In this document: piece by piece, positions 1,297-59,134 of the stretch
How the letters are laid out: each line of letters starts with the position of its first letter
Numbering within the stretch: the first letter of the stretch is position 1
Origin: an uncultured virus (IMG/VR IMGVR_UViG_3300042402_002237)
Taxonomy: Duplodnaviria; Heunggongvirae; Uroviricota; Caudoviricetes
IMG/VR virus record: IMGVR_UViG_3300042402_002237
Reading direction: 5' to 3' (one strand)
Length of the DNA stretch: 64,000 nt
The notes under the pieces: generated by a model
Told to the model about the DNA's origin: nothing
The model's input: the letters and a program-made list of their open reading frames with translations, nothing else
Database searches by the model: none
Position numbers and translations under genes: made by a program

Positions 1297-1297
1297 C

Positions 1298-3303: not shown

Positions 3304-3318
3304 TATTTTGCATTAGTA
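3288..3318 (+). promoter_or_regulatory. phage promoter GGGCG-N16-TGCATTAGTA
   Basis: One of 13 copies of the decamer, all oriented toward a downstream gene. Confidence 0.75.
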
Positions 3319-3409
3319 TAAGTAGAGAAGGCGAAAAGGTTTGCAAGCCCTGTCTGTGCCAGTACACAGTCTAGCCCCTCTAATATCCCCCACTTACTGG
3401 AGTATCAAA

Positions 3410-5273: not shown

Positions 5274-5286
5274 ACTAGGAGAGATA

Positions 5287-5571: not shown

Positions 5572-5572
5572 A

Positions 5573-7008: not shown

Positions 7009-7205
7009 GCCACTTTATTATAGAGTATTTATACAAGGACAAGTACATGATGGAGACGCTCATGGGCGTTGAAGACATTGACCTGAGCCACAGTCGATTT
7101 GAGAAGTTGATGGGTGTCTGGCAGTGCGAGACAATGGACGAGGTAACTACGATGCAAACACACTTAAGGGAGATGAGACGTGAACGATCCAGTAAACAAA
7201 CCTAA
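7005..7205 (+). CDS. hypothetical protein
   Basis: ATGA overlap. Confidence 0.55.
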   Translation: MSHFIIEYLYKDKYMMETLMGVEDIDLSHSRFEKLMGVWQCETMDEVTTMQTHLREMRRERSSKQT

Positions 7206-7383
7206 GCACTACACAGCGCACCCCAGTGGTGTGGAGTGTATACAGATCACCGAGCACATGGGCTTTTGTTTGGGTAACGCAGTAAAATACATTTGGCGTG
7301 CCGACCTTAAGAACGATGCAGTGGAAGATTTACGTAAGGCACGATGGTACATTGATAGAGAAATTGAACGGAGATTAAAATGA
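7180..7383 (+). CDS. DUF3310 / T7 gp1.7-like protein
   Basis: DPVNKPKHY...ECI...FCLGNAVKYIWRA..K..EDLRKARWY. Confidence 0.85.
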   Translation: MNDPVNKPKHYTAHPSGVECIQITEHMGFCLGNAVKYIWRADLKNDAVEDLRKARWYIDREIERRLK

Positions 7384-7534
7384 TTACAGGTATTGGAGTA
7401 GCATTAATGATTACGGGCATACTGGCCTACAGCGTGGCAGATAATTTTAAGCCGGACTGTGCGCCCTGGAAACGCTTTGTAATTAATTGCATCATCACGC
7501 TTGGCGCTACACTAACAATCTTGGGTTACGTATT

Positions 7535-7774
7535 ATGACTAACGGATTAAACATCACGGTAGACTGGGACACCGCCGACGCGATTATGGAGGCCCACCTA
7601 CTACACACGTACCACTCGCTAATCAGTAACATAAAGGTTCTCAAGTCTAAAAAGAAACTGCAAGACTTTGAAAAAGAGGACCTAGAGCATTTTAAGCGGG
7701 TACTCAAAAGCATCGAGGCTGTGGGTGACTGGTATATATTTGACTTCGATAAAAAGAAACGGAAGAAGAAATGA
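7535..7774 (+). CDS. hypothetical protein
   Basis: ORF from ATG 7535. Confidence 0.55.
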   Translation: MTNGLNITVDWDTADAIMEAHLLHTYHSLISNIKVLKSKKKLQDFEKEDLEHFKRVLKSIEAVGDWYIFDFDKKKRKKK

Positions 7775-8067
7775 ATTTGTGGAGCGAGTACGATCGATTT
7801 GACCTGGAGCAAGACATTATTAAGTGCGCGCAGGTCGAGGATTACCTAGACGAGTTTTTACGGCAGTACTTAGACAAGGCCGAGCACATGTCAGAGGACG
7901 ACGTGTACAACTATATTAGCGGGATTAAGTACGCGTCAAAACTTCAGAACCAACGACTGTGGGATGGCTTTGAACAGATGGTAGGAAAAGGCCATTTTGT
8001 GCAGTTAAATAAATATAAACCAGATGTAGATGTAGAACTTAAAATAAAGAAAGGAAGTAAAAAATGA
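7771..8067 (+). CDS. hypothetical protein (DRFDLEQ.I family)
   Basis: ORF, coupled. Confidence 0.6.
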   Translation: MNLWSEYDRFDLEQDIIKCAQVEDYLDEFLRQYLDKAEHMSEDDVYNYISGIKYASKLQNQRLWDGFEQMVGKGHFVQLNKYKPDVDVELKIKKGSKK

Positions 8068-8270
8068 AACAAGAATTATTAGATGATTTTAACGTGACGT
8101 TGGAGTTTTCTGTAAAGGAAATTAACGCGTTGCTAAACGTATTAGCGCAGTCGCCATTTATCCAGGTGGTTGGCTTTATTAACGAGATCCAGGCACAGGC
8201 CGGCCCACAGGTCGAGCAGGCAAAGAACAGCCTAGAGGCCGTTGAGAAGGCACAAAAAGATGAATCTTAA
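8064..8270 (+). CDS. hypothetical protein
   Basis: ORF, coupled. Confidence 0.6.
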   Translation: MKQELLDDFNVTLEFSVKEINALLNVLAQSPFIQVVGFINEIQAQAGPQVEQAKNSLEAVEKAQKDES

Positions 8271-8472
8271 AGATTTGTTAAACCGGGCCGGTATCCGTAA
8301 CGATATAGACAAGGCACTGGAGGACAAAGAGGCGGCCAAGGAGAAACAGATCCAGGAGATGGCCGGGGCAGTGACCCGCCTAATCATCAACGAGTCAATT
8401 AAAGAGGCCAAGGCTCGCGCTGCAGAGCGTGACAGGCTATTAATTAACCCGGATGGGGCGGAAAAGAAGTAG
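8260..8472 (+). CDS. hypothetical protein
   Basis: ORF from ATG 8260. Confidence 0.55.
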   Translation: MNLKDLLNRAGIRNDIDKALEDKEAAKEKQIQEMAGAVTRLIINESIKEAKARAAERDRLLINPDGAEKK

Positions 8473-8486
8473 ATTTTGCATTAGTA
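8456..8486 (+). promoter_or_regulatory. phage promoter GGGCG-N16-TGCATTAGTA
   Basis: Exact bipartite match. Confidence 0.75.
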
Positions 8487-8558
8487 GATATAGGGCTAGT
8501 AAGCTGTCGGGAGACACCCGAACGCCTTATTTTACATACACAAACACAGGAGAATTAC

Positions 8559-8816
8559 ATGAACCCATTTGAATTACGCTATGATTTACTCAAGACCTCC
8601 AAGGAGTTTTTGACCGAGCAATACAACGCCCAGCTAAAGGCATGGGAAGTGGCAGACGAGGCAGGTAAAAAACTGCTTGAGAAGGCCCCACAGTTCCCCA
8701 GCATGCACGAGATCATTGACAACGCGATCGAGATGAACAAGTTTATCAGCACCACGATCGAGGCACAATTGGTCGACGGCGTTAAGCGCTTTAACCGTAT
8801 CACAGCAGTATTTTAA
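8559..8816 (+). CDS. hypothetical phage protein (NPFELR.DLL family)
   Basis: CAGGAG RBS; recognisable phage motif. Confidence 0.7.
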   Translation: MNPFELRYDLLKTSKEFLTEQYNAQLKAWEVADEAGKKLLEKAPQFPSMHEIIDNAIEMNKFISTTIEAQLVDGVKRFNRITAVF

Positions 8817-8821
8817 TACCC

Positions 8822-8866
8822 GTTGCGACTTTTTAGCAGACGTTTGCAAGAAAGTCGCGACTTTTT
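8822..8866 (+). terminator. long hairpin followed by T-run (terminator or processing stem)
   Basis: GTTGCGACTTT...AAAGTCGCGAC followed by TTTTT. Confidence 0.45.
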
Positions 8867-8871
8867 AACAT

Positions 8872-8952
8872 GGGGTAGGTATAGTTTCGACGAGGGGCCA
8901 AGGCTGATATGCAACCCAGCGGACCACGGGGCAGTACCGTGCTACTCCACCA
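8872..8952 (+). ncRNA. tmRNA-like RNA reduced to the tRNA-like domain (no tag-coding domain)
   Basis: GGGGTAG/CTACTCC-ACCA acceptor stem with G3:U70, stemless D-loop ending TTCGA-C, GAC variable loop, T-arm CACGG-GGCAGTA-CCGTG. Confidence 0.8.
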
Positions 8953-9060
8953 AACACATGACAACAAAAGACGTCTTCTATTTTGCAACCGTACCAATCG
9001 CTTTGTTTGTAACCTATAAGTTACTACTAGAGCTTTGGTGCATAACTTACGGGATATTTT

Positions 9061-9210
9061 ATGGCAGCTAAACCTGGCCTCTATGCCAACATCCAAAAAA
9101 AGCGTGAACGTATCAAGGCCGGAAGTGGCGAGAAGATGCGCAAACCTGGCGACCCCGGCGCGCCCACATCCAAAGCATTTAAAGACTCTGCAAAGACAGC
9201 TAAAAAATAA
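9061..9210 (+). CDS. small basic phage protein (KPGLYANI..KR.RI)
   Basis: Read by hand, 49 aa; recognisable phage family; stop overlaps the next ATG. Confidence 0.7.
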   Translation: MAAKPGLYANIQKKRERIKAGSGEKMRKPGDPGAPTSKAFKDSAKTAKK

Positions 9211-9599
9211 TGGCAACTAAAAAAGCAAACCCGTCCAAGTACGATCCGGCTATGTGCGATCGCATGATCGAGCTGGGTAAGCTGGGCGCGTCACAGAAGA
9301 TGATCTGGTCTGACCTAAGCATTTCAAAGGGCACCGCAGAGAGCTGGAAAAAGAAGTACCCTGAGTTTGCCGAGGCGCTAGACCTATCCCTGGTCCACGC
9401 ACAGGCGTTCTGGGAGCGTGAGCTACTGGCAAACGTTGACAACAAGGGATACAACAGCCGGTTAGCTGAGATTGCGCTACGTGGCCAGTTCCAGCAAGAC
9501 TACCGAGAGACGCGGGATACTAAGATAGACCTCAAGGCAGAGGTTAAAGTAGACTTCCAAAAAGAGATAGCTAACTTGATTTCCGCCCTAAAGTCCTAA
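9210..9599 (+). CDS. terminase small subunit-like HTH protein
   Basis: PSKYDP..C...IELG..G......W..KYPEFAEA pattern. Confidence 0.6.
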   Translation: MATKKANPSKYDPAMCDRMIELGKLGASQKMIWSDLSISKGTAESWKKKYPEFAEALDLSLVHAQAFWERELLANVDNKGYNSRLAEIALRGQFQQDYRETRDTKIDLKAEVKVDFQKEIANLISALKS

Positions 9600-9627
9600 C
9601 AAAAATAAAGTTGTAGTTTTGACCAAA

Positions 9628-9652
9628 AAAGGCCCTACGGGGCCTTTATTTT
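9628..9652 (+). terminator. rho-independent terminator
   Basis: AAAGGCCC-TACG-GGGCCTTT followed by ATTTT. Confidence 0.6.
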
Positions 9653-9662
9653 TGCATTAGTA
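9653..9662 (+). promoter_or_regulatory. phage promoter, TGCATTAGTA only
   Basis: Exact decamer upstream of the DUF2800 gene. Confidence 0.65.
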
Positions 9663-9694
9663 TATGTACGACTAAAACGAATTGAAAGAATAAG

Positions 9695-10828
9695 ATGACC
9701 GCACACGCTCTTTTATCTGCTTCTGGATCCAAACGATGGCTAACATGTACGCCAAGCGCCAGACTGGAGGCAACACTCCCCGAACCAAAGAAAAATTCAG
9801 ATGCGTTTGATTTTAGCCAGGAGGGCACTACTGCCCACACACTAGCTGAGATAAAGCTCCGCCAACATTTTCAACAAATTGGAACCGAGGAATATGAAAC
9901 AGAATACAACGCCGTTAAAAGCACACCCTACTACAACGACGATTTCGAGGCTAACGTCGATAATTACGTTCTATATGTGCGTAGCCAGATCGGTGAGGGT
10001 GATACCCCGCTCTTTGAGCAACGCGTGGACTTCTCTGACTGGGTCCCTGACGGATTTGGTACGGCCGATGTGGTTATACTTTCTAAGCACACCATTCGCG
10101 TCATCGACCTCAAGTTTGGAAAGGGTGTGCCTGTCTCAGCGATCGATAACACCCAGCTACGACTATATGCGTTGGGTGCTTATGCCAAGTTTAAAGAAGA
10201 GTATCCGGACATCAAAGAGGTATCCTACACGATCCACCAGCCTCGCCTGGACAGTATCAGTACTGACGGCACCACCGTTAATAAACTCGTAGACTGGGCC
10301 AATTACTTTGTAAAACCCAAGGCTAAGAAGGCATGGAGCGGGTCAGGTGAATTTATTCCCGGCGATCATTGTCAGTTCTGTCGTGCGAAGGCACAGTGCC
10401 GCGCCCGCTCTGATTTCAATACAGAGCTAGCAAAACAAGAGTTTAAAGATCCGCCACTGCTAGACGAGGAAGAACTAGCCAACGTATTAGCCAAGGCGCA
10501 GGACCTACGGACCTGGGTCGCGGACGTCGAAGAGTACGCACTCGAGAAGGCAGTTAACGAGAACAAGCTACCGACTGGCTTTAAGTTATCGACCACGGTA
10601 ACGCACCGCAAGATCACGGACCAGCTACTAGCCGTTGAGGTACTAAAAGAAAAGGGCGTGCCAGAAGAACAGCTCTGGGAGTCACCAAAGTTAAAGTCAA
10701 TTGCGACACTAGAGAAGCTAAGACCAAAGGGCCAGGTTGTGGCGTGGTTAGGCGAGCTAGTGCAGCGACCAGAGGGTTCACCCAAATTGGTCCGCGTCCA
10801 AGAGACCGCGTCGGAGGACTTTAAATGA
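9695..10828 (+). CDS. DUF2800 PD-(D/E)XK (Cas4-like) exonuclease
   Basis: HALLSAS..RW..C, EGT.AH, GFGTAD, IDLKFG, QLRLYALG, C.FCRAK..C. Confidence 0.88.
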   Translation: MTAHALLSASGSKRWLTCTPSARLEATLPEPKKNSDAFDFSQEGTTAHTLAEIKLRQHFQQIGTEEYETEYNAVKSTPYYNDDFEANVDNYVLYVRSQIGEGDTPLFEQRVDFSDWVPDGFGTADVVILSKHTIRVIDLKFGKGVPVSAIDNTQLRLYALGAYAKFKEEYPDIKEVSYTIHQPRLDSISTDGTTVNKLVDWANYFVKPKAKKAWSGSGEFIPGDHCQFCRAKAQCRARSDFNTELAKQEFKDPPLLDEEELANVLAKAQDLRTWVADVEEYALEKAVNENKLPTGFKLSTTVTHRKITDQLLAVEVLKEKGVPEEQLWESPKLKSIATLEKLRPKGQVVAWLGELVQRPEGSPKLVRVQETASEDFK

Positions 10829-10969
10829 GTACCTGGCTAATAGCGGCGATGGGCTGCGTGTATTTTATCGTGGCGATTGATCAATTTATGAAGGGCGGCG
10901 TTGGTACGGGCATTATGTTTGTTGGTTACGCAATCGGAAACGTGGGGCTCGTACTGGTCGCAAAATAGC

Positions 10970-11227
10970 ATGAAGATGAAATTTTACAGTGCAGAGTTTG
11001 ATATACCAGAGCTAATGATTGACAAGTACATTAAAGACTTTGACGGATTATCTGGGCGCGGTCTTAGGCAAGAGGTCAATATGCTCCGAGACTCAATCGG
11101 CAGCATACTTGACGTGGTGGCAGAAGACCCCGAGATGCTACACGAGCCAGAGTACTTAGTTGATTTTATCCAGGCAATGGCAATGAAGAAGGCGATGGAG
11201 AAACATGGGATATTCTACGACGCATGA
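10970..11227 (+). CDS. hypothetical protein
   Basis: ORF from ATG 10970. Confidence 0.55.
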   Translation: MKMKFYSAEFDIPELMIDKYIKDFDGLSGRGLRQEVNMLRDSIGSILDVVAEDPEMLHEPEYLVDFIQAMAMKKAMEKHGIFYDA

Positions 11228-11354
11228 AGAGAAGTTATCACAAGAAGAGCTGTCAAAGATCCAAGAGACCCAAGAGCAAACACTTGCGGACTACTATAAA
11301 AGACGGTTGCAATATTGGGATTATCGTATTGTGAAAAATATAAGTGAATAAGTT

Positions 11355-11364
11355 TGCATTAGTA
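11355..11364 (+). promoter_or_regulatory. phage promoter, TGCATTAGTA only
   Basis: Exact decamer upstream of the SSB gene. Confidence 0.65.
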
Positions 11365-11431
11365 TATTTAGTAAAGGGTAGACGAACTGGCCCCTATTGA
11401 AGTCCAGTTCTACAGTTATAAAGGAATCAAC

Positions 11432-11953
11432 ATGGCACAAGCCACTACTAAAGTAAAAGTTGTAACCGGTAAAGTTCGTTTTTCTTATGCGAACGTATTC
11501 CAACCCGCCTCCTCAATCGAGGGTGGCACACCGAAGTACTCTGTATCAATCATCATCCCCAAGTCTGACAAGGACACCATCGCACGTCTTCAGAAAGCAT
11601 TTGAAGACACCAAGGCCGCGGCGTCTGCATACTTTGGTGGCGCGGTACCAAAGAACTTAAAGGGTGGCCTGCGTGACGGTGACGCAGAGAAGGACGACCC
11701 AGCGTACGCTAACAGCTACTTTATCAATGCAAACTCGGCACAAAAGCCTGGCGTTGTTGACGCCGACTTGAACCCGATCATTGACAGCAGCGAGTTTTAT
11801 AGCGGGTGCTATGGTCGCGCATCAATCACGTTCTACCCATACAATGCACAGGGCTCTAAGGGCATCGCATGTGGCTTGAACAACGTCCAGAAGTTAGAAG
11901 ACGGTGAGAAGTTAGGTGGTAGCACAACAGCAGCAGCCGACTTTGCGGTGTAA
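11432..11953 (+). CDS. DUF2815 ssDNA-binding protein (T7 gp2.5-like)
   Basis: VRFSYANVF, PKYSVS, LRDGD, FYSGCYGR, GIACGLNNVQK. Confidence 0.88.
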   Translation: MAQATTKVKVVTGKVRFSYANVFQPASSIEGGTPKYSVSIIIPKSDKDTIARLQKAFEDTKAAASAYFGGAVPKNLKGGLRDGDAEKDDPAYANSYFINANSAQKPGVVDADLNPIIDSSEFYSGCYGRASITFYPYNAQGSKGIACGLNNVQKLEDGEKLGGSTTAAADFAV

Positions 11954-11955
11954 TT

Positions 11956-12153
11956 ATGAGCCCACACGAAGCCGCTTATCGTAGAGGTTACACACACGGA
12001 TATTCCAATGCGTTAGATCACGCATTGGAAATGAAATGTAATCAAAATTCCAAATGGTGGCAATCACTAGCAAAGTTTTTTGATAAAGAAGTAATGGGTT
12101 GGAGATACGATACAAAAAAATTTATTCCGCCCGGTTTTAAAGAAATAGAATAA
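11956..12153 (+). CDS. hypothetical protein
   Basis: ORF (YRRGY.HG motif). Confidence 0.55.
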   Translation: MSPHEAAYRRGYTHGYSNALDHALEMKCNQNSKWWQSLAKFFDKEVMGWRYDTKKFIPPGFKEIE

Positions 12154-12171
12154 TAGTACCTAGTAGTGCGA

Positions 12172-12205
12172 GGGAGTGTCCGTAGAAACTACGGCCTCCC
12201 TTTTT
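12172..12205 (+). terminator. hairpin plus T-run
   Basis: GGGAG..CCGTAG-AAA-CTACGG.CTCCC-TTTTT. Confidence 0.5.
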
Positions 12206-12235
12206 CATCAACCCATATAACATAGAGAACAATAA

Positions 12236-14110
12236 ATGGATCAGTACCAAGAATACATTGCCGCCAGTAGATACGCCCGCTTTCAAGATGACAAGCAACG
12301 CCGAGAGACCTGGGCCGAGACAGTAGATCGCTACGTAGACTACATTTTTACTAGAACACCGGCGATAAAAGATAAGACGGAATTACGAAATGAAATTTTT
12401 GATGCTATCCATAACCTAGATTTGATGCCGTCCATGCGCGCCATGATGACGGCAGGAAAGAGTGCCGATCGTGATAACACCTGTGTCTATAATTGCTCGT
12501 ATCTCCCAGTGGATGACCCCAAATCGTTTGATGAGGCAATGTTCATATTGCTCTGCGGTACAGGAGTCGGGTTTTCGGTGGAGGCTAAATACATATCCAA
12601 TCTGCCAGAAGTGCCTGAAAAACTATTTGACTCCGAGCACACCATCGTCGTCCACGACTCCAAAGAAGGATGGGCAAAATCACTCCGCTTGCTTATTGCA
12701 AATCTCTACGCAGGCGAGATCCCTAAGTGGGACGTCAGCGCCATTAGACCTGCGGGAGCAAGACTCAAAACATTTGGTGGAAGAGCTTCAGGGCCGGAAC
12801 CATTAGTAGACCTGTTTAAGTTTACCGTAGCTACATTTAAACACGCGGCAGGCCGTCGTCTGCATTCGTTAGAGTGCCACGATCTGATGTGTAAAATTGG
12901 TGAGGTAGTTGTCGTGGGTGGCGTGCGTCGCTCCGCAATGATCTCGTTGTCTGACCTTGACGATGAAAGGATCCGTCATGCTAAAGCTGGACCCTGGTGG
13001 GAGACTGCACCTCACCGTGCTCTCGCCAATAATAGCGCGGTGTATAGTGAGACTCCTACCGTTGGAAAGTTTATGGAAGAGTGGCTATCTCTATACAATT
13101 CACACAGCGGAGAGCGTGGTATATTTAACCGTGAGGCTGCCAAGAATACCGTTGCTAAGTACGGACACCGTGATCCTAACTTTGAGTTCGGAACTAACCC
13201 CTGCTCAGAAATTATTCTTCGGCCCTACCAATTTTGTAACCTTACGGAGGCAGTGGTAAGGTATGATGACACTGAAGAAACGCTTCTTAGAAAAGTACGA
13301 ATCGCTTCGATTCTTGGCACAATCCAGGCCACTTTTACAAAGTTTCCGTATCTGCGCAAAGTGTGGCAACGTAACACCGAGGAAGAGAGATTGTTGGGAG
13401 TGTCGCTTACAGGCATTTACGACAACCCTTTACTAACAACACAGGGAGACAAACTAAATGAATTATTATCGAGACTTCGAGAGGAAGCTAGAAGAGCCAA
13501 TGAGGAATACGCAGCTTTGCTCGGAATACCTAAGAGTGCTGCGATCACTTGCGTTAAACCATCCGGAACCGTCAGCCAACTTGTTGATAGCGCATCTGGA
13601 ATACACCCAAGACATAGTGCGTTCTATATCCGCCGAGTTAGAGGAGATAAAAAAGACCCTCTTACACAGTTCTTAATTAGCCAAGGAATCCCAAGTGAAG
13701 ACGATGTTTACAAACCTACTCAGACGACTGTGTTCAGCTTTCCAATCAAAGCCCCCGCAGGAATCACCAGAGCCGATGTCACACCAATCAGCCACCTGGC
13801 CCTTTGGCTCACATATCAGCAGCACTGGTGCGAGCACAAGCCGTCGGTCACGATCTCCGTCGAAGAAAAAGACTGGCCAACAGTCGGCGCGTGGACCTGG
13901 GAAAACTTCAGCGAAATCAGCGGGGTCTCGTACCTCCCGTACGACGGCGGCACCTACCGCCAAGCGCCCTACGAAGAGTGCACCGAAGAAGAGTACAACG
14001 AGCTCAAAGCCAAGGTCCCAACGATCAACTGGAACGAGTTCAAAGAAGTAACAGATAACGTCGAGGGCGCGCAACAGTTAGCATGTAGCGCGGGGTCGTG
14101 TGAGATCTGA
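12236..14110 (+). CDS. nrdJ: class II (B12-dependent, RTPR-like) ribonucleotide reductase
   Basis: YNCSY, GTGVGF, GGVRRSA, GTNPCSEI, TCVKPSGTVS, C-terminal CSAGSCEI; no beta subunit gene. Confidence 0.92.
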   Translation: MDQYQEYIAASRYARFQDDKQRRETWAETVDRYVDYIFTRTPAIKDKTELRNEIFDAIHNLDLMPSMRAMMTAGKSADRDNTCVYNCSYLPVDDPKSFDEAMFILLCGTGVGFSVEAKYISNLPEVPEKLFDSEHTIVVHDSKEGWAKSLRLLIANLYAGEIPKWDVSAIRPAGARLKTFGGRASGPEPLVDLFKFTVATFKHAAGRRLHSLECHDLMCKIGEVVVVGGVRRSAMISLSDLDDERIRHAKAGPWWETAPHRALANNSAVYSETPTVGKFMEEWLSLYNSHSGERGIFNREAAKNTVAKYGHRDPNFEFGTNPCSEIILRPYQFCNLTEAVVRYDDTEETLLRKVRIASILGTIQATFTKFPYLRKVWQRNTEEERLLGVSLTGIYDNPLLTTQGDKLNELLSRLREEARRANEEYAALLGIPKSAAITCVKPSGTVSQLVDSASGIHPRHSAFYIRRVRGDKKDPLTQFLISQGIPSEDDVYKPTQTTVFSFPIKAPAGITRADVTPISHLALWLTYQQHWCEHKPSVTISVEEKDWPTVGAWTWENFSEISGVSYLPYDGGTYRQAPYEECTEEEYNELKAKVPTINWNEFKEVTDNVEGAQQLACSAGSCEI

Positions 14111-14113
14111 TCC

Positions 14114-14302
14114 ATGGATGTGCCCACCTCTGAATCTGATGAACTGGAACCTTTCGTGGATGTGGAAAGTCCCTGCACAGGAATCTGCCAGACAGACCCT
14201 TTCGATGTTTGCAAGGGATGCGGCAGGACACTCGATGAGATATCAAAGTGGACCTTTCTATCAAATCGCGAGAGGCAACAGATAGTTGATCGATTGTTTT
14301 AA
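14114..14302 (+). CDS. DUF1289 Cys-rich protein
   Basis: SPCTGIC...C.GCGRTLDEI..W. Confidence 0.8.
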   Translation: MDVPTSESDELEPFVDVESPCTGICQTDPFDVCKGCGRTLDEISKWTFLSNRERQQIVDRLF

Positions 14303-14321
14303 TTTCACATGGTGGTGATTT

Positions 14322-14347
14322 GGGGAGCTTAGGCTCCCCTCTTTTTT
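14322..14347 (+). terminator. rho-independent terminator
   Basis: GGGGAGC-TTAG-GCTCCCC followed by TCTTTTTT. Confidence 0.65.
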
Positions 14348-14356
14348 GCATTAGTA
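14347..14356 (+). promoter_or_regulatory. phage promoter, TGCATTAGTA only
   Basis: Exact decamer upstream of polA. Confidence 0.65.
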
Positions 14357-14391
14357 TACGTACCGATACGTCGGACAGCCTAAGGAGCGCT

Positions 14392-16305
14392 ATGATTTAT
14401 TCGATTGACTTTGAGACACGCAGTAAGGCCAACCTACCAGACGTAGGCCTTGACATCTACGCCAACGACCCCACAACAGAAGTGTTGTGTATTGCGTTTG
14501 GCACCGCACCCGAGAACGTACAAGTCTTTAAACCAGATGGAGGATTTGGTTTATTGAGGATACTAAACCACGTCCGCAACGGTGGCAAGATCGCCGCCTG
14601 GAACGCCATGTTTGAGTACGCTATCTGGAACTGCGTCTGCGTGCCTAAGTACGGGTGGCCTGCGCTTAAGCTCGAGCAGTGCATCGACACCATGGCCGTA
14701 GCGGCGGCCAATAACATACCACAGAGCTTGGATGACGCCGGCGCCTTTATGGACGCCAAGTACCAGAAAGACCCTATTGGCAAGAGGCTTATTCAAAAGC
14801 TATGCAAGCCCGGTATTAAAGGAACCTTTAATAACGACCCCGAGCTATTAAAGCAGCTCTTTGATTACTGCGCCCAAGACGTACGCACGGAGATGGCCCT
14901 AGGAGCCGTTTTAAGGCCCCTAGAAGACGTCGAACAGGCAGTCTGGACCCTCACCCAGCGGATCAACACACGAGGCGTTCCTGTGGACCCTAGAGAGCTC
15001 CAAAATGCCGTCCTGGCGGTTCGGACGGCCCAGGACACCATAGACCGGGAATGCCTCGAGCTGACCGGCTGTAAGCCAAGCGAGCGGGCCAAACTACTGG
15101 CCTGGCTCAATGAGCAGGGCGCCGGACTGGACGACCTGACCGCCGAGACCGTCTCAAAAATGCTGCAGTGCAGCATTCACACGCGCGTAAAAAAAGCGCT
15201 CGAGCTAAGACAAGATGGTAGCCAAACTAGCGTGGCTAAGTACGCTAAAATGTTGGAGGTGCAACGTGGGGGAAGGATCAGAAATACGCTTGTCTATCAT
15301 GGGGCTAGCACTGGGCGTTGGGCTAGTCGTGGTGGACTTAACCTACAGAATATCGCTCGGCCTACTCTATCCGATGAAGAAATTGAGAGATGTATACCTC
15401 GAGTTTTTGATCAGGCGACTGGTAGCATGGGAGAGCTATCCTCTCTTGTTCGAAGTGGAATCAAGGCGCCGGATGGAAAAACCTTTGTGGACGTTGATTT
15501 CTCGTCTATTGAGAACCGAGTAGGGGTCTGGCTCGCCGGACAAAGAGACAAGGTAGAAATGTTTAGGAAGGGATTAGATGAGTACAAAATGTTCGCCTCC
15601 CAGTCGCTGTACCGAGTCCCGTATGACCAGGTTACAAAGGATCAAAGACAGGTTGCTAAGTCGGCGGTTTTGGGCGCAATGTTTGGTCAAGGCGCTAAGG
15701 GCCTAGTACGGTACGCGGAGGGGATGGGGGTTAAGCTCACCGAGCCACAGGCAAAGAGCGCCGTAGATAACTACCGGGGTTCGTATGTAATGGTCAAGGA
15801 GCTATGGGGAGCGTGCGAGAGCGCGGCGATCCAGGCCGTAGAGAACCCAGGGTCGCCATTCGCAGCGGGCGCTAAGATTATATTGAAGTGCGCGAAGGGT
15901 GCGCTGTGGATGCGCCTACCGAGTGGCAGGCTTATCTGTTGGCAGAGGCCAGAGCTCGAGTTGCTCACCACACCCTGGGGGAGTGAAAAGCTCGGCGTTA
16001 CGGTTCACAGCCAGAACACCTACACCCGGCAGTGGACCCGAAATGCCATCATCGGCAGTAGCATCTTCCAGTCCGCGGTACAGGGTACCGCTCGGGATTT
16101 TCTTGCCGTGGCTATGCTTAACCTTGATAAAGCCGGTTACGAAGTGATTAACAGCGTGCATGATGAAGTTTTACTCCTCGTTGAAGAACAAAACGGGGAG
16201 TCCGCAATGGCCGACGTAATCAAGATAATGACTACGCCACCGTCGTGGGCTCCCGATTTTCCTCTCGCAGCGGAGGGTTGGCACGGCAAGCGCTACCGTA
16301 AGTAA
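14392..16305 (+). CDS. polA: family A DNA polymerase
   Basis: AAGGAG RBS before ATG 14392; IDFET exonuclease motif, TGRW, DFSSIE motif A, RQVAKSAVLG motif B, VHDE motif C. Confidence 0.93.
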   Translation: MIYSIDFETRSKANLPDVGLDIYANDPTTEVLCIAFGTAPENVQVFKPDGGFGLLRILNHVRNGGKIAAWNAMFEYAIWNCVCVPKYGWPALKLEQCIDTMAVAAANNIPQSLDDAGAFMDAKYQKDPIGKRLIQKLCKPGIKGTFNNDPELLKQLFDYCAQDVRTEMALGAVLRPLEDVEQAVWTLTQRINTRGVPVDPRELQNAVLAVRTAQDTIDRECLELTGCKPSERAKLLAWLNEQGAGLDDLTAETVSKMLQCSIHTRVKKALELRQDGSQTSVAKYAKMLEVQRGGRIRNTLVYHGASTGRWASRGGLNLQNIARPTLSDEEIERCIPRVFDQATGSMGELSSLVRSGIKAPDGKTFVDVDFSSIENRVGVWLAGQRDKVEMFRKGLDEYKMFASQSLYRVPYDQVTKDQRQVAKSAVLGAMFGQGAKGLVRYAEGMGVKLTEPQAKSAVDNYRGSYVMVKELWGACESAAIQAVENPGSPFAAGAKIILKCAKGALWMRLPSGRLICWQRPELELLTTPWGSEKLGVTVHSQNTYTRQWTRNAIIGSSIFQSAVQGTARDFLAVAMLNLDKAGYEVINSVHDEVLLLVEEQNGESAMADVIKIMTTPPSWAPDFPLAAEGWHGKRYRK

Positions 16306-54092: not shown

Positions 54093-54123
54093 TACTAATG
54101 CACAAATCCAGGGGTATCCGCCC
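54093..54123 (-). promoter_or_regulatory. phage promoter GGGCG-N16-TGCATTAGTA
   Basis: Exact bipartite match. Confidence 0.75.
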
Positions 54124-55568
54124 TACTGGGCGTAGGGGTTGGCAAATCGCTTGCTTAGGTCGTCGTCCACGTAACTATAGTCTCGAGCCGGTAGCGGGTC
54201 GAGCTGGATCCATCCAGAATCACGTAGAACGCGCAACGCTTGCGAGAGGGAGTCGACGTAGTCGTCGTGTCCACCAGCCTCTGGAAATGAACATACTTGA
54301 CGCAGAAAACGTTTTGCCCAGTCTGCATATTCTCCTTTGCGTTGGGGTTCCTCTGGTATCCAGACTTTGCCCTTAGACACCAGCGGCGCGACAATGTTTA
54401 ACCGTTGTACCTTATCGGCGCGTCCCGGGTTGTATCCCCTGACAGGCACACCAGCTCCCTGGAGCTCCTGGATCAGCGAAATACCCGCCGACTTATCTTC
54501 CATGAGGATCAGGTCCGCCTTTCGGCCCTTACCAAAGTCATTATCGGCGCCGTAAACGACCTCCTTAAAGTCGTTGATTACCTTCCTGCGTAACTCGGGG
54601 TAGGACAGGTGCTCGTCCCAAGCGTCCAGTAATATGATCGCTGTACCAGCGTCTTGTTGTTCAAACACGCCCCAGATGGTGCAGGCGGTTGGGTCGTTCA
54701 TTGTTTTCTCAGAAGTCGCCGGGTCATACGACGCGATGACATACTCCAGTGTCGGAGTTGGCTTGTTGGCTGGCCAGAGCTTAAACTGTTTGCGTTTGAT
54801 GATACCTGACTGTTCTGGGTCAAGGATCTCGCCATAGATCTCTTGTCTTCCAATGTCAGTTCCGTCATACGTTTCAAGCTGTTTGAAAAAAGTCTCTGAA
54901 AGGTTTGCTCGGTTGTCGTAGGACGACGCGTTTGATACGTATACATCCCCACCTACTTTCCCCTCGTTTAAATCTACAATTAATTCTTTTGGCTTGGGTG
55001 TGGTGGTAATAATCTGCTGCACTCGAGGGATGCGTGGGTCCCGTAGACGGAGGGTAAACTGTACTCCATCGTAGGCATCGTCGATGTAATCAAATGCACA
55101 CAGCTCGTCAAACCACGCCCCGTGATATTGTTTACCTCGGTAGCGCTCAGGCTCGGAGGCCGGGATCCCCTGTATAAGAGATCCATTTGTAAGGGTGATT
55201 TCAAACAGGGACTTGTTGTAGTCTCGAATGAGTGACGGGGGAATGATATTGAGAAGTCCAGAGTCCCCCTCGAAACAAGTTGCACGTATATCGTTTGAGG
55301 TGGGAGCGGTGACGAGCCAGCGGGTGTTGTCATACATCCAAGCCCGAATACCAATCCAGTGGCTAGCAGTGTGCGTTTTACCCGATCCACGACCGGCAAG
55401 CATAAGAAACGTGTCATATTCGCCATCCTCTGGCTCCCGTTGGTGTGGTAGCGCCTGTAGGTGCCACTTGACCTGCCAGATGGCAGCCTCAAGCTGTTCC
55501 TTAGGCCAGTGCTTGTTGCTATCTGCGAACTTTTTTAATACAAGCTCTTGTTTTGATGTTAACGACAT
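54123..55568 (-). CDS. terL: terminase large subunit
   Basis: AGRGSGKT Walker A, WFDE Walker B, TTTP, EDKSAG, HDDYVD nuclease. Confidence 0.93.
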   Translation of the reverse strand: MSLTSKQELVLKKFADSNKHWPKEQLEAAIWQVKWHLQALPHQREPEDGEYDTFLMLAGRGSGKTHTASHWIGIRAWMYDNTRWLVTAPTSNDIRATCFEGDSGLLNIIPPSLIRDYNKSLFEITLTNGSLIQGIPASEPERYRGKQYHGAWFDELCAFDYIDDAYDGVQFTLRLRDPRIPRVQQIITTTPKPKELIVDLNEGKVGGDVYVSNASSYDNRANLSETFFKQLETYDGTDIGRQEIYGEILDPEQSGIIKRKQFKLWPANKPTPTLEYVIASYDPATSEKTMNDPTACTIWGVFEQQDAGTAIILLDAWDEHLSYPELRRKVINDFKEVVYGADNDFGKGRKADLILMEDKSAGISLIQELQGAGVPVRGYNPGRADKVQRLNIVAPLVSKGKVWIPEEPQRKGEYADWAKRFLRQVCSFPEAGGHDDYVDSLSQALRVLRDSGWIQLDPLPARDYSYVDDDLSKRFANPYAQ

Positions 55569-56551
55569 GAAATAAAACCCTCTCCTACGAGATAGCTGTT
55601 ATCTGGCCCGTCTGTTTCGATGTGAACACAGGTCTGCGGCTGGATCTTTGTAATTTTTTCGATGTACCTACGCGCCTGGTGTACTTTTATCGGTTTAGAT
55701 ACCTGATTAGGTACCAGTTTTAACCTGGTTTTAAAAAATAGCGAGTAAATTTTCTTTTGTTCTGTAAAACTGAGCCGGGTCTTGCCACCCAGGGACTCAA
55801 CTAGGCCCTGAACTGCCAGCGCCGTGCCATAATGTGTGGTCGAGAACCTAAACTGGTCTCTGTTTGTCGAATATTGCTGGGCCTTTGCAAACAAAATGCC
55901 ACGTAGCAGCTCAATTCGCTGGTCTTTGTCCGCCAGCAGGTAGTTTGCCGGTAATTTTGTCGGAATATCTGGGGCCAACTGTGACTCTATGGTCGGCGAT
56001 ATGGTAAATTGGCGCCAGCCATTTTTCAAAGTCTTGCGAATCTTGACCTTGTACCCAAAATCTTTGAGTTGCTGCTCAACTTCTTCGGTTGTATCGGGGT
56101 TTGTTGTAAAATATCCGCTGGGTTTGCGGTTTATAAACCAGAACCCAAACACAAACGGCGGGACTGGTAGGGTCTGGTGGGGTAGCTCGATGGGTTTTGT
56201 GGTAGGGATCGAATAGATCCGGTGGTTGTCTTCCCGCTTATGTCCCCGCTCTAACAAATTTTCCACGTTTATGGGCCGTAGTGGCCGCCTAAATGGGTGG
56301 TAGCCTTTGTACGTCATGGCACGCAGCCGGTACTTAAAGTTTTCCACCAAAAATTCCAGGCGTTTGTCCCCAGAAATTGTAAGGTAATCGTTTAACGTAA
56401 CCTCGTAGCAGTCCTCTGAGAAGTATTCCTGGACCAGCTTTACCTTTACGGGTTTGCCGTTTTGGTCAAACAGGTAGTCACCCGGCTGGATTTTGTTTGC
56501 CGGTTTCCAGTAGTCCAAGGTCAGGACTTTTTGATTTGCTAGTATTGCCAT
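55559..56551 (-). CDS. free-standing Hint (intein-like) plus degenerate LAGLIDADG protein
   Basis: VLT..W...I.PGD..FD..GKP..V N-Hint, PPF.FG.W and R.ELLRG endonuclease blocks, CVHIE.D..DNSYL C-Hint. Confidence 0.7.
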   Translation of the reverse strand: MAILANQKVLTLDYWKPANKIQPGDYLFDQNGKPVKVKLVQEYFSEDCYEVTLNDYLTISGDKRLEFLVENFKYRLRAMTYKGYHPFRRPLRPINVENLLERGHKREDNHRIYSIPTTKPIELPHQTLPVPPFVFGFWFINRKPSGYFTTNPDTTEEVEQQLKDFGYKVKIRKTLKNGWRQFTISPTIESQLAPDIPTKLPANYLLADKDQRIELLRGILFAKAQQYSTNRDQFRFSTTHYGTALAVQGLVESLGGKTRLSFTEQKKIYSLFFKTRLKLVPNQVSKPIKVHQARRYIEKITKIQPQTCVHIETDGPDNSYLVGEGFISCR

Positions 56552-56819
56552 AAAAATTATCTAGGACCCACAGGTCCAGCCAACGCCCTAACGGCGCCCT
56601 AATTTTGTTTTGGATCTCCACGGGCAGTCGGTTAATATCCATGTGCTCGCAGACCTTTAAACGAAACTCGATGTACTTAGCCGTCTCTTTGTCCAATATT
56701 TCAACTGGCGCGTCGGCAGAGTCAAAGTGATACAGGTTACAGACCAGGACACGGAACCCCCTAAGTCTTCCATTAGAATCTTCTAGGGCACCCTGGATCT
56801 GGTAAACATATTCGTTCAT
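56478..56819 (-). CDS. hypothetical protein (probably leaderless)
   Basis: ATG 5 nt after the promoter decamer. Confidence 0.6.
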   Translation of the reverse strand: MNEYVYQIQGALEDSNGRLRGFRVLVCNLYHFDSADAPVEILDKETAKYIEFRLKVCEHMDINRLPVEIQNKIRAPLGRWLDLWVLDNFYGNTSKSKSPDLGLLETGKQNPAG

Positions 56820-56824
56820 ACATC

Positions 56825-56855
56825 TACTAATGCAAACATTTGATTATTATGGCCC
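56825..56855 (-). promoter_or_regulatory. phage promoter GGGCC-N16-TGCATTAGTA
   Basis: Bipartite match with one mismatch. Confidence 0.7.
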
Positions 56856-56901
56856 CACCTCAATGCGATAGTTTTTAACTATCAATTTTGCTCGCAGAAG
56901 C

Positions 56902-57014
56902 GCGGCACTTGCGGCACTTGCGGGGGTATATTCCAGGTTTCCCTCTATCTTTATTTTTTATTTTTTAAAAATAATAAAAATAGTAAAGTAACCCCCGCAA
57001 CCCCCGCATCCCCG
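56902..57014. repeat. inverted 9-bp iteron-like repeats around an AT-rich core (possible origin)
   Basis: GCGGCACTT x2 plus TGCGGGGGT ... ACCCCCGCA repeats flanking an A/T tract. Confidence 0.5.
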
Positions 57015-57200
57015 TCAAACATCAAGGACTTAGCGCATTTCATTTCACATTGTGAAATTTACTATACAAATTTTACAAAAAAAATTTTAGAAAGTCGACT
57101 TTTGTGGGTAATGGAACGAGCTTGGGGTCTGTGGGGCCCCCAGCCGGCCGCCCCGCCACGGGACCCAAATTGGCATACCGCATTATGAAAAAGCCCCCCG

Positions 57201-57257
57201 TGCACCAAAATGGTGCACAAATTCACCGCCTTGGTGCGTCTGCACCAACATGGTGCA
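57201..57257. promoter_or_regulatory. three NtrC-box-like sites
   Basis: TGCACCAAAATGGTGCA, TTCACCGCCTTGGTGCG, TGCACCAACATGGTGCA. Confidence 0.65.
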
Positions 57258-57270
57258 CAGCTCGAGCGCT

Positions 57271-57428
57271 TCGATGTTAGTGAGCGCTCACTAACATCGA
57301 GGCACCGCGCCCCCCTGCCAAGTAGCGCATTGGTTAGTGAGTACTAACTAACATGGCCGAGCGCCCACTCTGTCCCCATTATCAGCACTCGATGTGCCTG
57401 AGTGCTAAGTTAGTAAGTGCTAACTAAC
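57271..57428. repeat. three GTTAGTRAG|..CT.ACTAAC palindromes
   Basis: Perfect 30-bp palindrome 57271-57300; related copies at 57333-57352 and 57409-57428. Confidence 0.75.
57382..57408. promoter_or_regulatory. CIRCE element (HrcA operator)
   Basis: TCAGCACTC-N9-GAGTGCTAA; 17/18 match to TTAGCACTC-N9-GAGTGCTAA. Confidence 0.75.
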
Positions 57429-57517
57429 ATGGCGCCCTGTTAGGGTAAATACCTATTGACGGATTGGACGCGTTTTAAGGGGGCTAGGAGGCGCGCAGGG
57501 CAGAGATGATGGTTAGG

Positions 57518-57530
57518 TATCAACTCATTG
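57518..57530 (+). promoter_or_regulatory. IHF-site consensus match
   Basis: TATCAA-CTCA-TTG fits WATCAANNNNTTR. Confidence 0.5.
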
Positions 57531-57628
57531 ACGATCGTTGAGCCATCGAGCTGGGGTGCCACCACAAAGGCTTTGCGGGCGCGAGGGCGGATAGGTGGGG
57601 TGGGCGAGTGATCAGGTAATTTGAGTTA

Positions 57629-57653
57629 CCACAATATCCCACAATCCCCCACA
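57629..57653 (-). promoter_or_regulatory. MraZ-box-like triple repeat
   Basis: TGTGG-N5-TGTGG-N5-TGTGG (10-bp period). Confidence 0.55.
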
Positions 57654-57679
57654 GTTTAGTCAGGTATTTTATTTAGTTG

Positions 57680-57709
57680 TTTACATTTAATTCCAAAGGT
57701 CTGTACAAT
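57680..57709 (+). promoter_or_regulatory. host sigma70-type early promoter
   Basis: TTTACA-N18-TACAAT with AT-rich upstream region. Confidence 0.6.
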
Positions 57710-57893
57710 AGAGGGTATCGGAAGTGCAGTGGCTAATCCACTCAAACGCAAACCCAACCGCGATCTATAAGGGGGAGCCGGCAGAACCGGTGCTGTTATC
57801 CAACACAGCGTATGCTAACAGATAGTAATGCTCAGAGCGCATTGTAACCAGTGCGCTCGAGGCAGTACTAACCAAACAACAGGAGATTACACC

Positions 57894-58145
57894 ATGGCAA
57901 AATTCACAGTCGTTAAGTTAATCGATGAGAAAAAAGTAGTACCTGCAAGATTGTTACCTGAGCAGTGTGGTGGCAACATGACATGGCAGATTGATGACAA
58001 AGACGTATTGGAGTACAACCCCAAGACTAAACAGTTTAGCCTTGAGGTTTATGAGTTCCAAAATGATGACTACGAGCTAGTCAACACCTTGGGGCACGAT
58101 GACGCGTATCAGATAGCATTAGATGAGGGTATCTGCTACGAGTAA
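57894..58145 (+). CDS. early hypothetical protein
   Basis: CAGGAG RBS before ATG 57894. Confidence 0.7.
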   Translation: MAKFTVVKLIDEKKVVPARLLPEQCGGNMTWQIDDKDVLEYNPKTKQFSLEVYEFQNDDYELVNTLGHDDAYQIALDEGICYE

Positions 58146-58147
58146 CA

Positions 58148-58199
58148 GGTCGAAACAGCCTAACGGCTGTCTGCACGTTAGGCGTGCACTGATGAGACC
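58148..58199 (+). ncRNA. type II hammerhead ribozyme
   Basis: GGTC-GAAA-CAGCC-TAAC-GGCTG-TC^-TGCACG-TTAGG-CGTGCA-CTGATGA-GACC. Confidence 0.92.
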
Positions 58200-58220
58200 A
58201 CACACAACACAGGAGAGCCT

Positions 58221-58619
58221 ATGAACTTTCAATACATCTGCAATAACCCACGCACATTTGACTTAGAGATCAACGATTGCGTGGTTCGGGCGCTATCGCT
58301 CGCATTCAATCGGGCGTACCCCGAGGTGCACGAGGTATGTGCCAAGGCAGGGCGCAAGCCACGCCGTGGCATGATGCGTGCCCAAACCGACAAGGCGATC
58401 CAAGTACTGAGCGCCAACAAAGACGCCAAGCTCGAGCGATACAGTCGGGGCAACCGGTGCACACTGGCAACCTTTGCCAAGCACAACCCCAAGGGTAACT
58501 TTATCGTGATCAAGAGGGGACACGCCGTGGCGCTGATCGATGGCGTGTACCACGATAACAGCAACACCGAGACAGGCCTGCCACGCTCGATCGTGCAGGC
58601 GTGTTTTAGGACTAAGTAA
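58221..58619 (+). CDS. early hypothetical protein (DCVVRAL...H......G..D motif)
   Basis: CAGGAG RBS; Cys/His/Asp pattern suggests a papain-like fold. Confidence 0.7.
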   Translation: MNFQYICNNPRTFDLEINDCVVRALSLAFNRAYPEVHEVCAKAGRKPRRGMMRAQTDKAIQVLSANKDAKLERYSRGNRCTLATFAKHNPKGNFIVIKRGHAVALIDGVYHDNSNTETGLPRSIVQACFRTK

Positions 58620-58621
58620 CA

Positions 58622-58671
58622 GGTCGAAACGCCGTGAGGCGTATGCACGTTAGGCGTGCACTGACGAGACC
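58622..58671 (+). ncRNA. type II hammerhead ribozyme
   Basis: GGTC-GAAA-CGCC-GTGA-GGCG-TA^-TGCACG-TTAGG-CGTGCA-CTGACGA-GACC. Confidence 0.92.
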
Positions 58672-58691
58672 AAACAACGGAGAGTAATAAC

Positions 58692-59072
58692 ATGGCATAC
58701 ATGAACCAAGACAAAAAGGCAGTAATCAAGGCAAACCTAGACAAGGCGCTCAAACCACTGGGCATTAAGTTTAGCCTGCGTGTAAGTAATCACATGGCGA
58801 TTACTTGCACAATCAAGAGCGCGCCATTTAATATGCTCGCAGATCGTAAGCAAGCGCTGAGCGCATTCCAACAGGATCATGCGCAGGTCAACCCATACTG
58901 GTTCCAAGACCATTACGTGGGCAAAACACGTGACGTACTGGCTAAGGTCATGGAGGCAATGCAAAGCGCCGGATACTACGATCGCAGTGACGCCATGGTG
59001 GACTACTTCGACACGGCGTACTACTACCATGTCAACATCGGCGACTACGACAAACCATTTCAGGTAAAATAA
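58692..59072 (+). CDS. early protein, LPD29-like
   Basis: K.S.R N-part and YDRSDAMVDYFD motif. Confidence 0.6.
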   Translation: MAYMNQDKKAVIKANLDKALKPLGIKFSLRVSNHMAITCTIKSAPFNMLADRKQALSAFQQDHAQVNPYWFQDHYVGKTRDVLAKVMEAMQSAGYYDRSDAMVDYFDTAYYYHVNIGDYDKPFQVK

Positions 59073-59134
59073 AATCAGTGGCTCGATCTATGAGCCACTG
59101 ACACAGTACAATGATGACATCAACAGGAGATAAT

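Follow-up and report, generated by a model that had tools for sequence, protein, structure and literature searches.

Clusters of type II hammerhead ribozymes that flank single genes have been described in prophages (Perreault et al. 2011, PLoS Comput Biol; PMC3088659). In the parts of that report drawn on here, the clusters are taken to imply that long phage transcripts are processed into single-gene mRNAs, circular products are considered, transcripts of around 2 kb are cleaved (three clusters in vitro, one also in E. coli), and in most type II hammerheads loop I and the 3′ tail form a pseudoknot. A later study of Desulfovibrio vulgaris, again in the parts drawn on here, found that three type II hammerheads near phage-like genes (loc 1–3) cleave in vivo, with 5′-OH and 2′,3′-cyclic phosphate ends captured from cells by cyPhyRNA-seq (2021; PMC8782182). 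The purpose of many bacterial and phage hammerheads was still unresolved according to the relevant part of a 2019 review (PMC6765202). Here we analyse two type II hammerheads in a 64,000-nucleotide (nt) stretch of DNA, the window, from an uncultured virus of the Caudoviricetes (IMG/VR record IMGVR_UViG_3300042402_002237), where they bracket a single gene, orfB, with orfA upstream and orfC downstream. We consider it likely that both are functional self-cleaving ribozymes that cut a plus-strand operon mRNA into single-gene messages.

Both copies lie in the sense orientation, 422 nt apart around orfB. Hammerhead 1 runs from GGUC (58148–58151) through GAA, A, the stem III strands CAGCC and GGCUG closed by UAAC, U and C58171, after which cleavage is predicted, to the stem I strands UGCACG and CGUGCA closed by UUAGG, then CUGAUGA (58189–58195) and GACC (58196–58199). 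Hammerhead 2 follows the same order, with GGUC (58622–58625), GAA, A, stem III strands CGCC and GGCG closed by GUGA, U, A58643 as its predicted cut site, a 17-nt stem I of the same sequence, CUGACGA (58661–58667) and GACC (58668–58671). The core residues are complete in both (GAAA, GUC^ and CUGAUGA in copy 1; GAAA, GUA^ and CUGACGA in copy 2), both satisfy the N-U-H rule for the cleavage triplet, in which H is not G, and both have the pairs A15.1–U16.1 and G10.1–C11.1 next to the core, as read from the sequence. Loops close off stems I and III, and stem II (GGUC/GACC, 4 base pairs (bp)) is open, which is the type II topology; the stem III sequences of the two copies differ through compensatory changes. 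Each copy is separated by the two nucleotides CA from a TAA stop codon (58143–58145 and 58617–58619), and its 3′ end stands 12 nt (copy 1) or 7 nt (copy 2) before a Shine–Dalgarno sequence, beyond which the next gene starts with ATG (58221 or 58692). An initial annotation of this DNA, made from its letters, had described the core, the open stem II, the identical stem I, the differing yet paired stem III, the sense placement 2 nt after a stop and just before the next ribosome-binding site (RBS), the cuts at 58171 and 58643 and a fragment of 472 nt between them; our reading of the sequence agrees in every one of these details. A pattern combining the core with stem I occurs at exactly two sites in the 64-kb window, compared with none expected from 100 shuffles. 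Both the minimum free energy (MFE) and the centroid structures of each copy are the hammerhead three-way junction, whether folded alone or in 106–111 nt of native context, with fold z-scores of −3.2 (copy 1) and −2.8 (copy 2) for the isolated copies.

The best-scoring Rfam family for both copies was RF02276 (Hammerhead_II), with alignments spanning the full model, positions 1–66. Scores were 31.5 bits for copy 1 (E value 3e-4 in a 1-kb scan) and 19.9 bits for copy 2 (E value 0.034 in a 101-nt scan), so that the Infernal comparison with Hammerhead_II proposed in the initial annotation did match both copies but left them under the gathering threshold of 37 bits. No hammerhead match anywhere in the window attained the Rfam gathering score, nor did any copy in the 16 related viral loci that we scanned reach an Rfam hammerhead cut-off. 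The sub-threshold score is a property of the curated model rather than of the ribozyme class. We did not take the miss as contrary evidence, because the sub-threshold alignments are full length and because a model built from viral copies separates the two sites from the rest of the window by more than 50 bits.

To obtain that model, viral contigs were scanned with the pattern GGTCGAAAC, a gap of 20–50 nt and CTGANGAGACC, which leaves stems I and III unconstrained. The scan returned at least 124 loci holding 155 matches, 129 of them unique. An alignment of 36 unique 52-nt viral copies together with copy 1 of the window (37 sequences) had 99.8% of stem cells paired, with double-sided changes at 10 pairs (146 cells); sliding the partners by one to three columns as a control lowered pairing to 28–45%. 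When the covariance model derived from these 37 sequences (R1) was searched against the full 64 kb with its filters off, it found two sites only: copy 1, itself a training sequence, at 79.1 bits, and copy 2, from outside the training set, at 63.4 bits (E value 1.4e-15). The next-best match in the window scored 9.6 bits.

R1 was then used to survey 78 sources, leaving out five apparent duplicates, 44 loci with only 300-nt flanks and the contig L126 (see below). It gave 122 hits, in which 99.7% of stem cells pair and double changes affect 13 of 16 pairs, including three of the four stem II pairs, in an alignment that is fitted to the model. The stem II double changes come from 28 hits outside the original pattern, for example GGAC/GUCC and AGCC/GGCU. 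Among 120 unique copies, position 17 was C in 103, A in 15, U in two and G in none, and the conserved core positions showed no substitution in the window copies or in any of the 120 homologues. The claim with which the locus was first annotated, that two type II hammerheads bracket one gene, is thus backed by covariation in more than 100 viral homologues and by strict conservation of the core. We conclude that both elements truly belong to the hammerhead class and have the type II topology.

The position of the window copies relative to genes is also shared by the viral copies. In 88 of the 122 copies, an open reading frame (ORF) of at least 40 codons in the sense direction had its stop codon ending −1 to +5 nt ahead of stem II, compared with 292 of 6100 random same-strand positions (4.8%) and 12 of 122 on the antisense strand. 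The commonest distance from stop to stem II was 2 nt, the same as in the window, and a start codon opening at least 40 codons followed in 115 of the 122 at a median distance of 17 nt. Within the literature library searched, no publication brought type II hammerheads, stop codons and phages together. Between two and nine copies were present in the sequence examined for 22 of the 78 sources, always on one strand and with gaps of 167–1141 nt; the remaining 56 had a single hammerhead within flanks of around 1.5 kb on each side. The densest array of the set, with at least nine hammerheads in around 2.9 kb and three stem II sequences, was on one viral contig (loci L024 and L025). The 108 unique ORFs directly downstream of hammerheads are small (median 88 amino acids (aa)), and only 15 have a Pfam match at an E value of 1e-4 or lower, some of these being below curated cut-offs: DUF7249 (four), DUF932 and GP88 (two each), and ArdA, Mor, small terminase, AAA, Amidoligase_2, DUF6525 and a YdcK repeat (one each). 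A separate measure, the presence of a frame of at least 60 codons spanning the hammerhead (72 of 122 sense, 90 of 122 antisense), was rejected because such stop-to-stop frames are common and also span the window copies on the non-coding strand.

The surveyed copies define a subclass in which stem II is open and 4 bp long, stem I has 6 bp and is capped by a 5-nt UNANG loop, and an unpaired A flanks stem II on each side. Loop I has 5 nt in 109 of the 120 unique copies, and in those 109 its sequence is U (107), N, A (85), N, G (92); A stands 5′ of stem II in 118 of the 120 and 3′ of it in 88, neither of these flanking bases having been constrained by the search pattern. The window copies fit this description, with the loop UUAGG and an A at both sides of stem II. 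Members of the subclass are common and widespread in viral contigs. In 108 copies whose loop has 5 nt, we detected no Watson–Crick pseudoknot between loop I and the 3′ flank: complementary stretches of 4 bp or more had a frequency of 0.30, compared with 0.29 when the partners were shuffled. For contacts between loop I and the 5′ flank in the same copies the values were 0.32 and 0.39, and no covariation was seen between loop and flank columns. A high z-score linking loop position 1 (U) to position −1 (A) was set aside, since both columns are nearly invariant and the score does not reflect covariation. The conserved unpaired bases probably form a non-Watson–Crick contact that holds stems I and II together.

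A separate feature was noticed in the 3′ flanks of some viral copies. In 12 of 118 unique hammerheads, stem II is followed by 5–6 nt that exactly reverse-complement CUGAN of the core, with a rough chance expectation of around 0.2 cases, and the complement covaries with N7, AUCAG accompanying CUGAU and GUCAG accompanying CUGAC. These copies come from the viral-contig loci L005, L010, L018, L020, L024, L027, L037, L042, L049, L061 and L065; neither window copy has such a complement. The resulting hairpin could hide the catalytic core.

In the mechanism that we propose, the hammerheads would be transcribed within a plus-strand operon that begins after a divergent region at 56819–57828. Each ribozyme would fold once its full 50–52 nt had been transcribed and would then cut after C58171 or A58643. 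The halves would be expected to separate, since in a type II hammerhead both ends lie in stem II, so that the flanking mRNAs would remain attached only through this weak 4-bp helix. Hammerhead cleavage leaves 5′-OH and 2′,3′-cyclic phosphate ends, and terminal hairpins and a 5′-OH slow end-dependent RNases. The upstream mRNA would keep its stop codon and a tail of 24–26 nt, closed off at its end by the stem III hairpin and a 2′,3′-cyclic phosphate, and the downstream mRNA would begin with a 5′-OH on the fully paired stem I hairpin and have a 48–49-nt leader holding the RBS. The operon would in this way be split into an orfA message, an orfB message of 472 nt and a message from orfC onwards, and the stability and translation of these messages would be uncoupled without a host enzyme, resembling what RNase III processing achieves for the early mRNA of T7. 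Because the 5′ strand of stem II would be covered by any ribosome that terminates at the stop codon, folding must compete with upstream translation. The predicted MFE and centroid structures of the 472-nt product keep both terminal hairpins and contain a helix between the GACC of copy 1 and the GGUC of copy 2; the 5′ hairpin that the initial annotation had given to the released RNA is a consequence of the topology and is present in this predicted fold.

Several points weigh against this reading. The curated Rfam model does not vouch for the subclass, all scanned copies being below its cut-off. Stem II has just 4 bp, and the loop I–tail pseudoknot, which is critical for fast cleavage in the part of the 2011 report that treats it (PMC3088659), is missing from the subclass found in the window, so that activity at cellular Mg2+ would depend on the proposed tertiary contact, which is unproven. 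In close relatives, orfC is present without hammerhead 2, and the element is to that extent dispensable for orfC. The early timing of the operon is plausible from gene order alone; a promoter-like match at 57680–57709 was discarded, because promoter matches are no more frequent than in shuffles and it can be put down to chance. Cleavage could equally well destabilise one of its products instead of protecting it by a hairpin and uncoupling it; cleavage in vivo, hairpin protection and a benefit to the phage are all things that we infer. Contigs from RNA libraries (one run recorded as RNA, two guessed to be RNA), which by their nature cannot show RNA ends, cover small pieces that partly belong to relatives, and one of them bridges the uncut hammerhead of a relative. 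Two pieces from these libraries belong to hammerheads of relatives. One contig, from a run whose RNA origin is a guess, ends at 58643, no more than 3 nt away from the predicted second cut; as a single end from an uncertain library it is not evidence.

Comparison with relatives bears on what the hammerheads do at this locus. orfB is encoded at 92% identity in three viral contigs (L125, L126 and L127). In L125, three hammerheads upstream of orfB separate three other small ORFs that take the place of orfA, with the right junction of the exchange around 10 nt before hammerhead 1; orfB and orfC are 15 nt apart with no hammerhead between them, and relative to this contig hammerhead 2 is a clean indel of around 56 nt between TAACAGG and the RBS. 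L127 also carries three upstream hammerheads and other small genes in place of orfA, with a 72-aa ORF between the last hammerhead and orfB. L126 starts 331 nt before orfB, and what lies further upstream is not visible. Hammerhead 2 and orfC are both missing from L126 and L127, in which a close version of the 11-bp hairpin that follows orfC in the window stands directly 3′ of the orfB stop. The complete records from which these loci come have hammerheads at this place only, three each in G002 and G004; G003, a contig that starts just before orfB, has none. DNA contigs from lake metagenomes diverge from the window at 58146, the 5′ edge of hammerhead 1, and at 58678, just past hammerhead 2, and one such contig joins 57886 to 59076. 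The comparison of bracketed genes suggested with the initial annotation thus finds hammerheads around different small ORFs in relatives, and its further idea that the repeats serve recombination of gene cassettes gains some support from differences in hammerhead-bounded units and from junctions at their edges. The ribozymes are thus a conserved punctuation between exchangeable small genes, and are gained and lost themselves.

Two further features of these sequences are recorded here. An extra U between A9 and G10.1 (CUGAUGA-U-GACC) is present in five of the six hammerheads of L125 and L127 (Table 1) and in four copies elsewhere. The leader 3′ of hammerhead 2 (ACCAAACAAC-GGAGAG...ATGGCA; 58669–58697) resembles the leader before orfA (ACCAAACAAC-AGGAGA...ATGGCA; 57871–57899; repeat D4), and a mosaic junction with L125 and with variant contigs falls at 57872–57875, inside the shared leader.

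Such mosaicism could mean that the hammerheads act mainly at the level of DNA, as conserved linkers that provide homology for shuffling, duplicating or deleting early-gene cassettes, with RNA cleavage being secondary. Around 50 nt of shared hammerhead sequence and the common leader ACCAAACAAC-GGAG would supply that homology, and the replacement of orfA in L125 by three hammerhead-separated ORFs with a junction close to hammerhead 1, the absence of hammerhead 2 and orfC as one unit from L126 and L127, the clean indel of hammerhead 2, the contig breaks at the two outer edges, the 57886-to-59076 join, the identity of stem I sequences between copies of one genome and the similarity of the two leaders are all in its favour. 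However, a pure linker would need neither the complete set of catalytic nucleotides, nor H at position 17, nor compensatory changes in all three stems; these features show selection on the RNA. Phage mosaics would also be expected to break at gene boundaries in the absence of ribozymes. We therefore regard a mainly DNA-level role as unlikely, while noting that linker and RNA-cleavage roles are not exclusive. The opposite doubt, that the motifs are inactive or decaying relics, or plain intercistronic hairpins of an RNase-site or terminator-like kind with no self-cleavage, could draw on the sub-threshold Rfam scores, the absent pseudoknot, the plain hairpin or empty slot in the place of hammerhead 2 in relatives, and the suggestion, in the part of the 2011 report that bears on it, that some clustered hammerheads may be non-functional (PMC3088659). 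Relics would accumulate core mutations, yet there is no core substitution in the window copies or the unique homologues; the stem III differences are compensatory and N7 varies only where variation is allowed. We judge this explanation to be highly improbable.

A third possibility is that the pair exists to make a circular orfB mRNA. After both cuts, the 3′ half of hammerhead 1 and the 5′ half of hammerhead 2 would rejoin by way of stem II as a chimeric hammerhead in the product state, placing the 5′-OH next to the cyclic phosphate for ligation by the ribozyme or by host RtcB. A circle would resist exonucleases and be translated from an internal RBS. The pairing of copy 1 GACC with copy 2 GGUC beside the terminal hairpins, predicted in both the MFE and the centroid fold, would be compatible with such a product; RtcB joins ends of this chemistry, and bacterial initiation needs no free 5′ end. 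Against this, a helix of 4 bp is a weak closure for a loop of 420 nt, a Pfam scan of 53 window ORFs turned up no RtcB or RNA ligase family (the window's ORF list has 97 entries and does not include orfB, which was scanned), and no back-joined contig was seen, at nearly nil coverage. Pairing of hammerheads is not the rule, given the predominance of single copies among the surveyed sources, and hammerhead 2 is absent from close relatives. Spliced or circular products of such clusters were looked for, and none detected, in the parts of the 2011 report that deal with them (PMC3088659). Judged from titles and the opening lines of abstracts, the papers retrieved on hammerheads, RtcB, phages and circles did not evidently deal with naturally circular phage mRNAs. 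That circularisation is what the pair exists for seems to us very unlikely. Hardly better is the chance of a combined model, resting on the predicted fold, in which the pair would yield a covalently closed, translatable orfB mRNA and the bounded genes would be units both of circularisation and of DNA cassette exchange, an arrangement that we regard as distinctly unlikely. Self-cleavage of the operon mRNA into linear single-gene messages is the reading that we retain. Coordinates of the elements, the predicted product and the neighbouring features are collected in Table 1.

Table 1. Positions of the two hammerheads, the genes and signals around them and the predicted message in the window, and of hammerheads with an extra U in relatives.
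Feature	Position	Strand	Details
orfA	57894–58145	+	83 aa from ATG 57894; longest frame starts at 57828; TAA 58143–58145
Hammerhead ribozyme 1, type II	58148–58199	+	Sequence reading, RF02276, R1, fold
Predicted processed orfB mRNA	58172–58643	+	472 nt; 5′-OH stem I hairpin, 3′ stem III hairpin + UA, cyclic phosphate
Shine–Dalgarno AGGAG of orfB	58212–58216	+	Sequence reading
orfB	58221–58619	+	132 aa, PHROG 3754, function unknown
Hammerhead ribozyme 2, type II	58622–58671	+	Sequence reading, RF02276, R1, fold
Shine–Dalgarno GGAGAG of orfC	58679–58684	+	Sequence reading
orfC	58692–59072	+	126 aa, PHROG 10415, function unknown
11-bp hairpin	59074–59102	+	Directly 3′ of orfC stop
Extra-U hammerheads	L125 2150–2222, 2418–2490; L127 1886–1958, 2392–2462, 2630–2702

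The window reads as a phage genome. Its large terminase gene (54123–55568, minus strand) encodes a protein whose nearest relatives are an uncultured Caudoviricetes sequence (53% identity) and Caulobacter phages (42%). A late block occupies the minus strand from 16306 to 56819, and the plus strand at 83–16305 encodes an SNF2 helicase, a DUF2800 nuclease, an Enc34-type single-stranded DNA (ssDNA)-binding protein, a ribonucleotide reductase and a family A DNA polymerase. Small plus-strand ORFs, including one for a sigma-70-like protein, extend from 57828 to the end of the window, and, counted from the 1-kb divergent non-coding region, the intergenic gaps that the hammerheads fill are the second and the third. 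No integrase was found in the window ORFs scanned. DNA of this phage is found in lake and freshwater metagenomes; blastn searches of public phage genomes in near and distant modes gave no match. The nearest record, the 22-kb fragment G001, has no hammerheads, which is uninformative.

orfA has no Pfam or PHROG family, and orfC has a weak match to LPD29, below the cut-off. Within the late/early non-coding region, three copies of a 25-nt palindromic motif (GTTAGTGAGTACTAACTAACATGGC or variants, at 57276, 57333 and 57409) lie between 57268 and 57433 on the plus strand, and two TGCACCAAAATGGTGCA hairpins stand at 57201 and 57241; together they resemble the operators of a regulator. Of all Rfam families, just one exceeds its cut-off in the window, the DUF2815 RNA motif (RF03084) at 11375–11434 on the plus strand (75 bits, E value 2.7e-13); its end falls on the start codon of the gene for the Enc34-type ssDNA-binding protein (11432–11953). 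A 330-aa ORF without a Pfam family (55559–56551, minus strand) shares 10 nt with the beginning of the terminase gene.

The bracketed gene itself, orfB, has no Pfam family, and its 79 homologues carry the name 'hypothetical protein' in every source name shown; some are around 200 aa long, with an extra N-terminal part or domain. Cys20, His101, Asp107 and Asp112 are invariant in 39 aligned sequences. In the AlphaFold model (predicted local distance difference test score, pLDDT, 90.7), Cys20 begins a helix (20–28) and His101 begins a strand (101–106). Foldseek returned nothing for this model at an E value of 1e-3 or lower. An exhaustive structure alignment gave the C39 peptidase domain of ComA (5xe8) as the best match, at a middling Z of 8.3 with a root mean square deviation of 3.2 over 109 residues, and almost all of the top matches are papain-fold cysteine peptidases. 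With moderate confidence, we predict that orfB encodes a small, minimal papain-fold (C39-like) cysteine peptidase.

The locus does not change the picture of what hammerheads do and is one more example of it. Its value lies in being a compact natural test case, with two ribozymes around a 132-aa gene at the start of an early operon, for which close relatives carrying the same genes with or without a given ribozyme provide ready-made controls for the effect of cleavage on mRNA level or translation. The practical value of the survey is to point out a common, pseudoknot-free subclass that is missed at the Rfam cut-off (in the 16 loci scanned) and that lies flush with the upstream stop codon far more often than expected by chance.

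In phage T7, host RNase III cuts the early polycistronic mRNA at double-stranded stems, leaving 5′-phosphate and 3′-OH ends. The proposed processing is alike in that intercistronic structures would cut a long early transcript into single-gene messages that keep terminal hairpins; the sites are not homologous, a protein enzyme acting in T7 whereas here the RNA would cut itself and leave 5′-OH and 2′,3′-cyclic phosphate ends. Viroid-like RNAs and retrozymes contain tandem type I or III hammerheads in repeats that replicate or retrotranspose through circular RNA. There, too, two copies excise the intervening RNA with ligatable ends, whereas the RNA between the type II copies in the window is protein-coding phage mRNA and no circle was seen.

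Closer to the present case are loc 1–3 of D. vulgaris (PMC8782182), which, in the parts of that study drawn on here, are type II elements near hypothetical or phage-like genes with two of them around 310 nt apart on one strand; host and element differ, and the likeness is one of description, not of sequence comparison. Closest are the clusters of Perreault et al. 2011 (PMC3088659), to which the same restriction to parts of the report applies. Their consensus has a pseudoknot and often a very short stem II, and the 3′ tail of the RF02276 model, which is the pseudoknot partner, has no counterpart in the window copies; here stem II has 4 bp, the loop is UNANG, As flank stem II and a pseudoknot is not detectable. 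Their elements are from prophages and were assayed, whereas ours are on a lake phage contig and known from sequence alone. The catalytic core, the type II topology and the occurrence of several copies on one strand, flanking single genes or short blocks of varying identity, are the same, and ArdA, one of the 108 downstream ORFs in our viral survey, is encoded by a gene that also adjoins their ribozymes. The proposed role, the cutting of phage transcripts into single-gene mRNAs, is likewise the same: the self-processing that the initial annotation put forward and that we favour restates the hypothesis published in 2011, and both the arrangement and its likely role have been known in phages since then.

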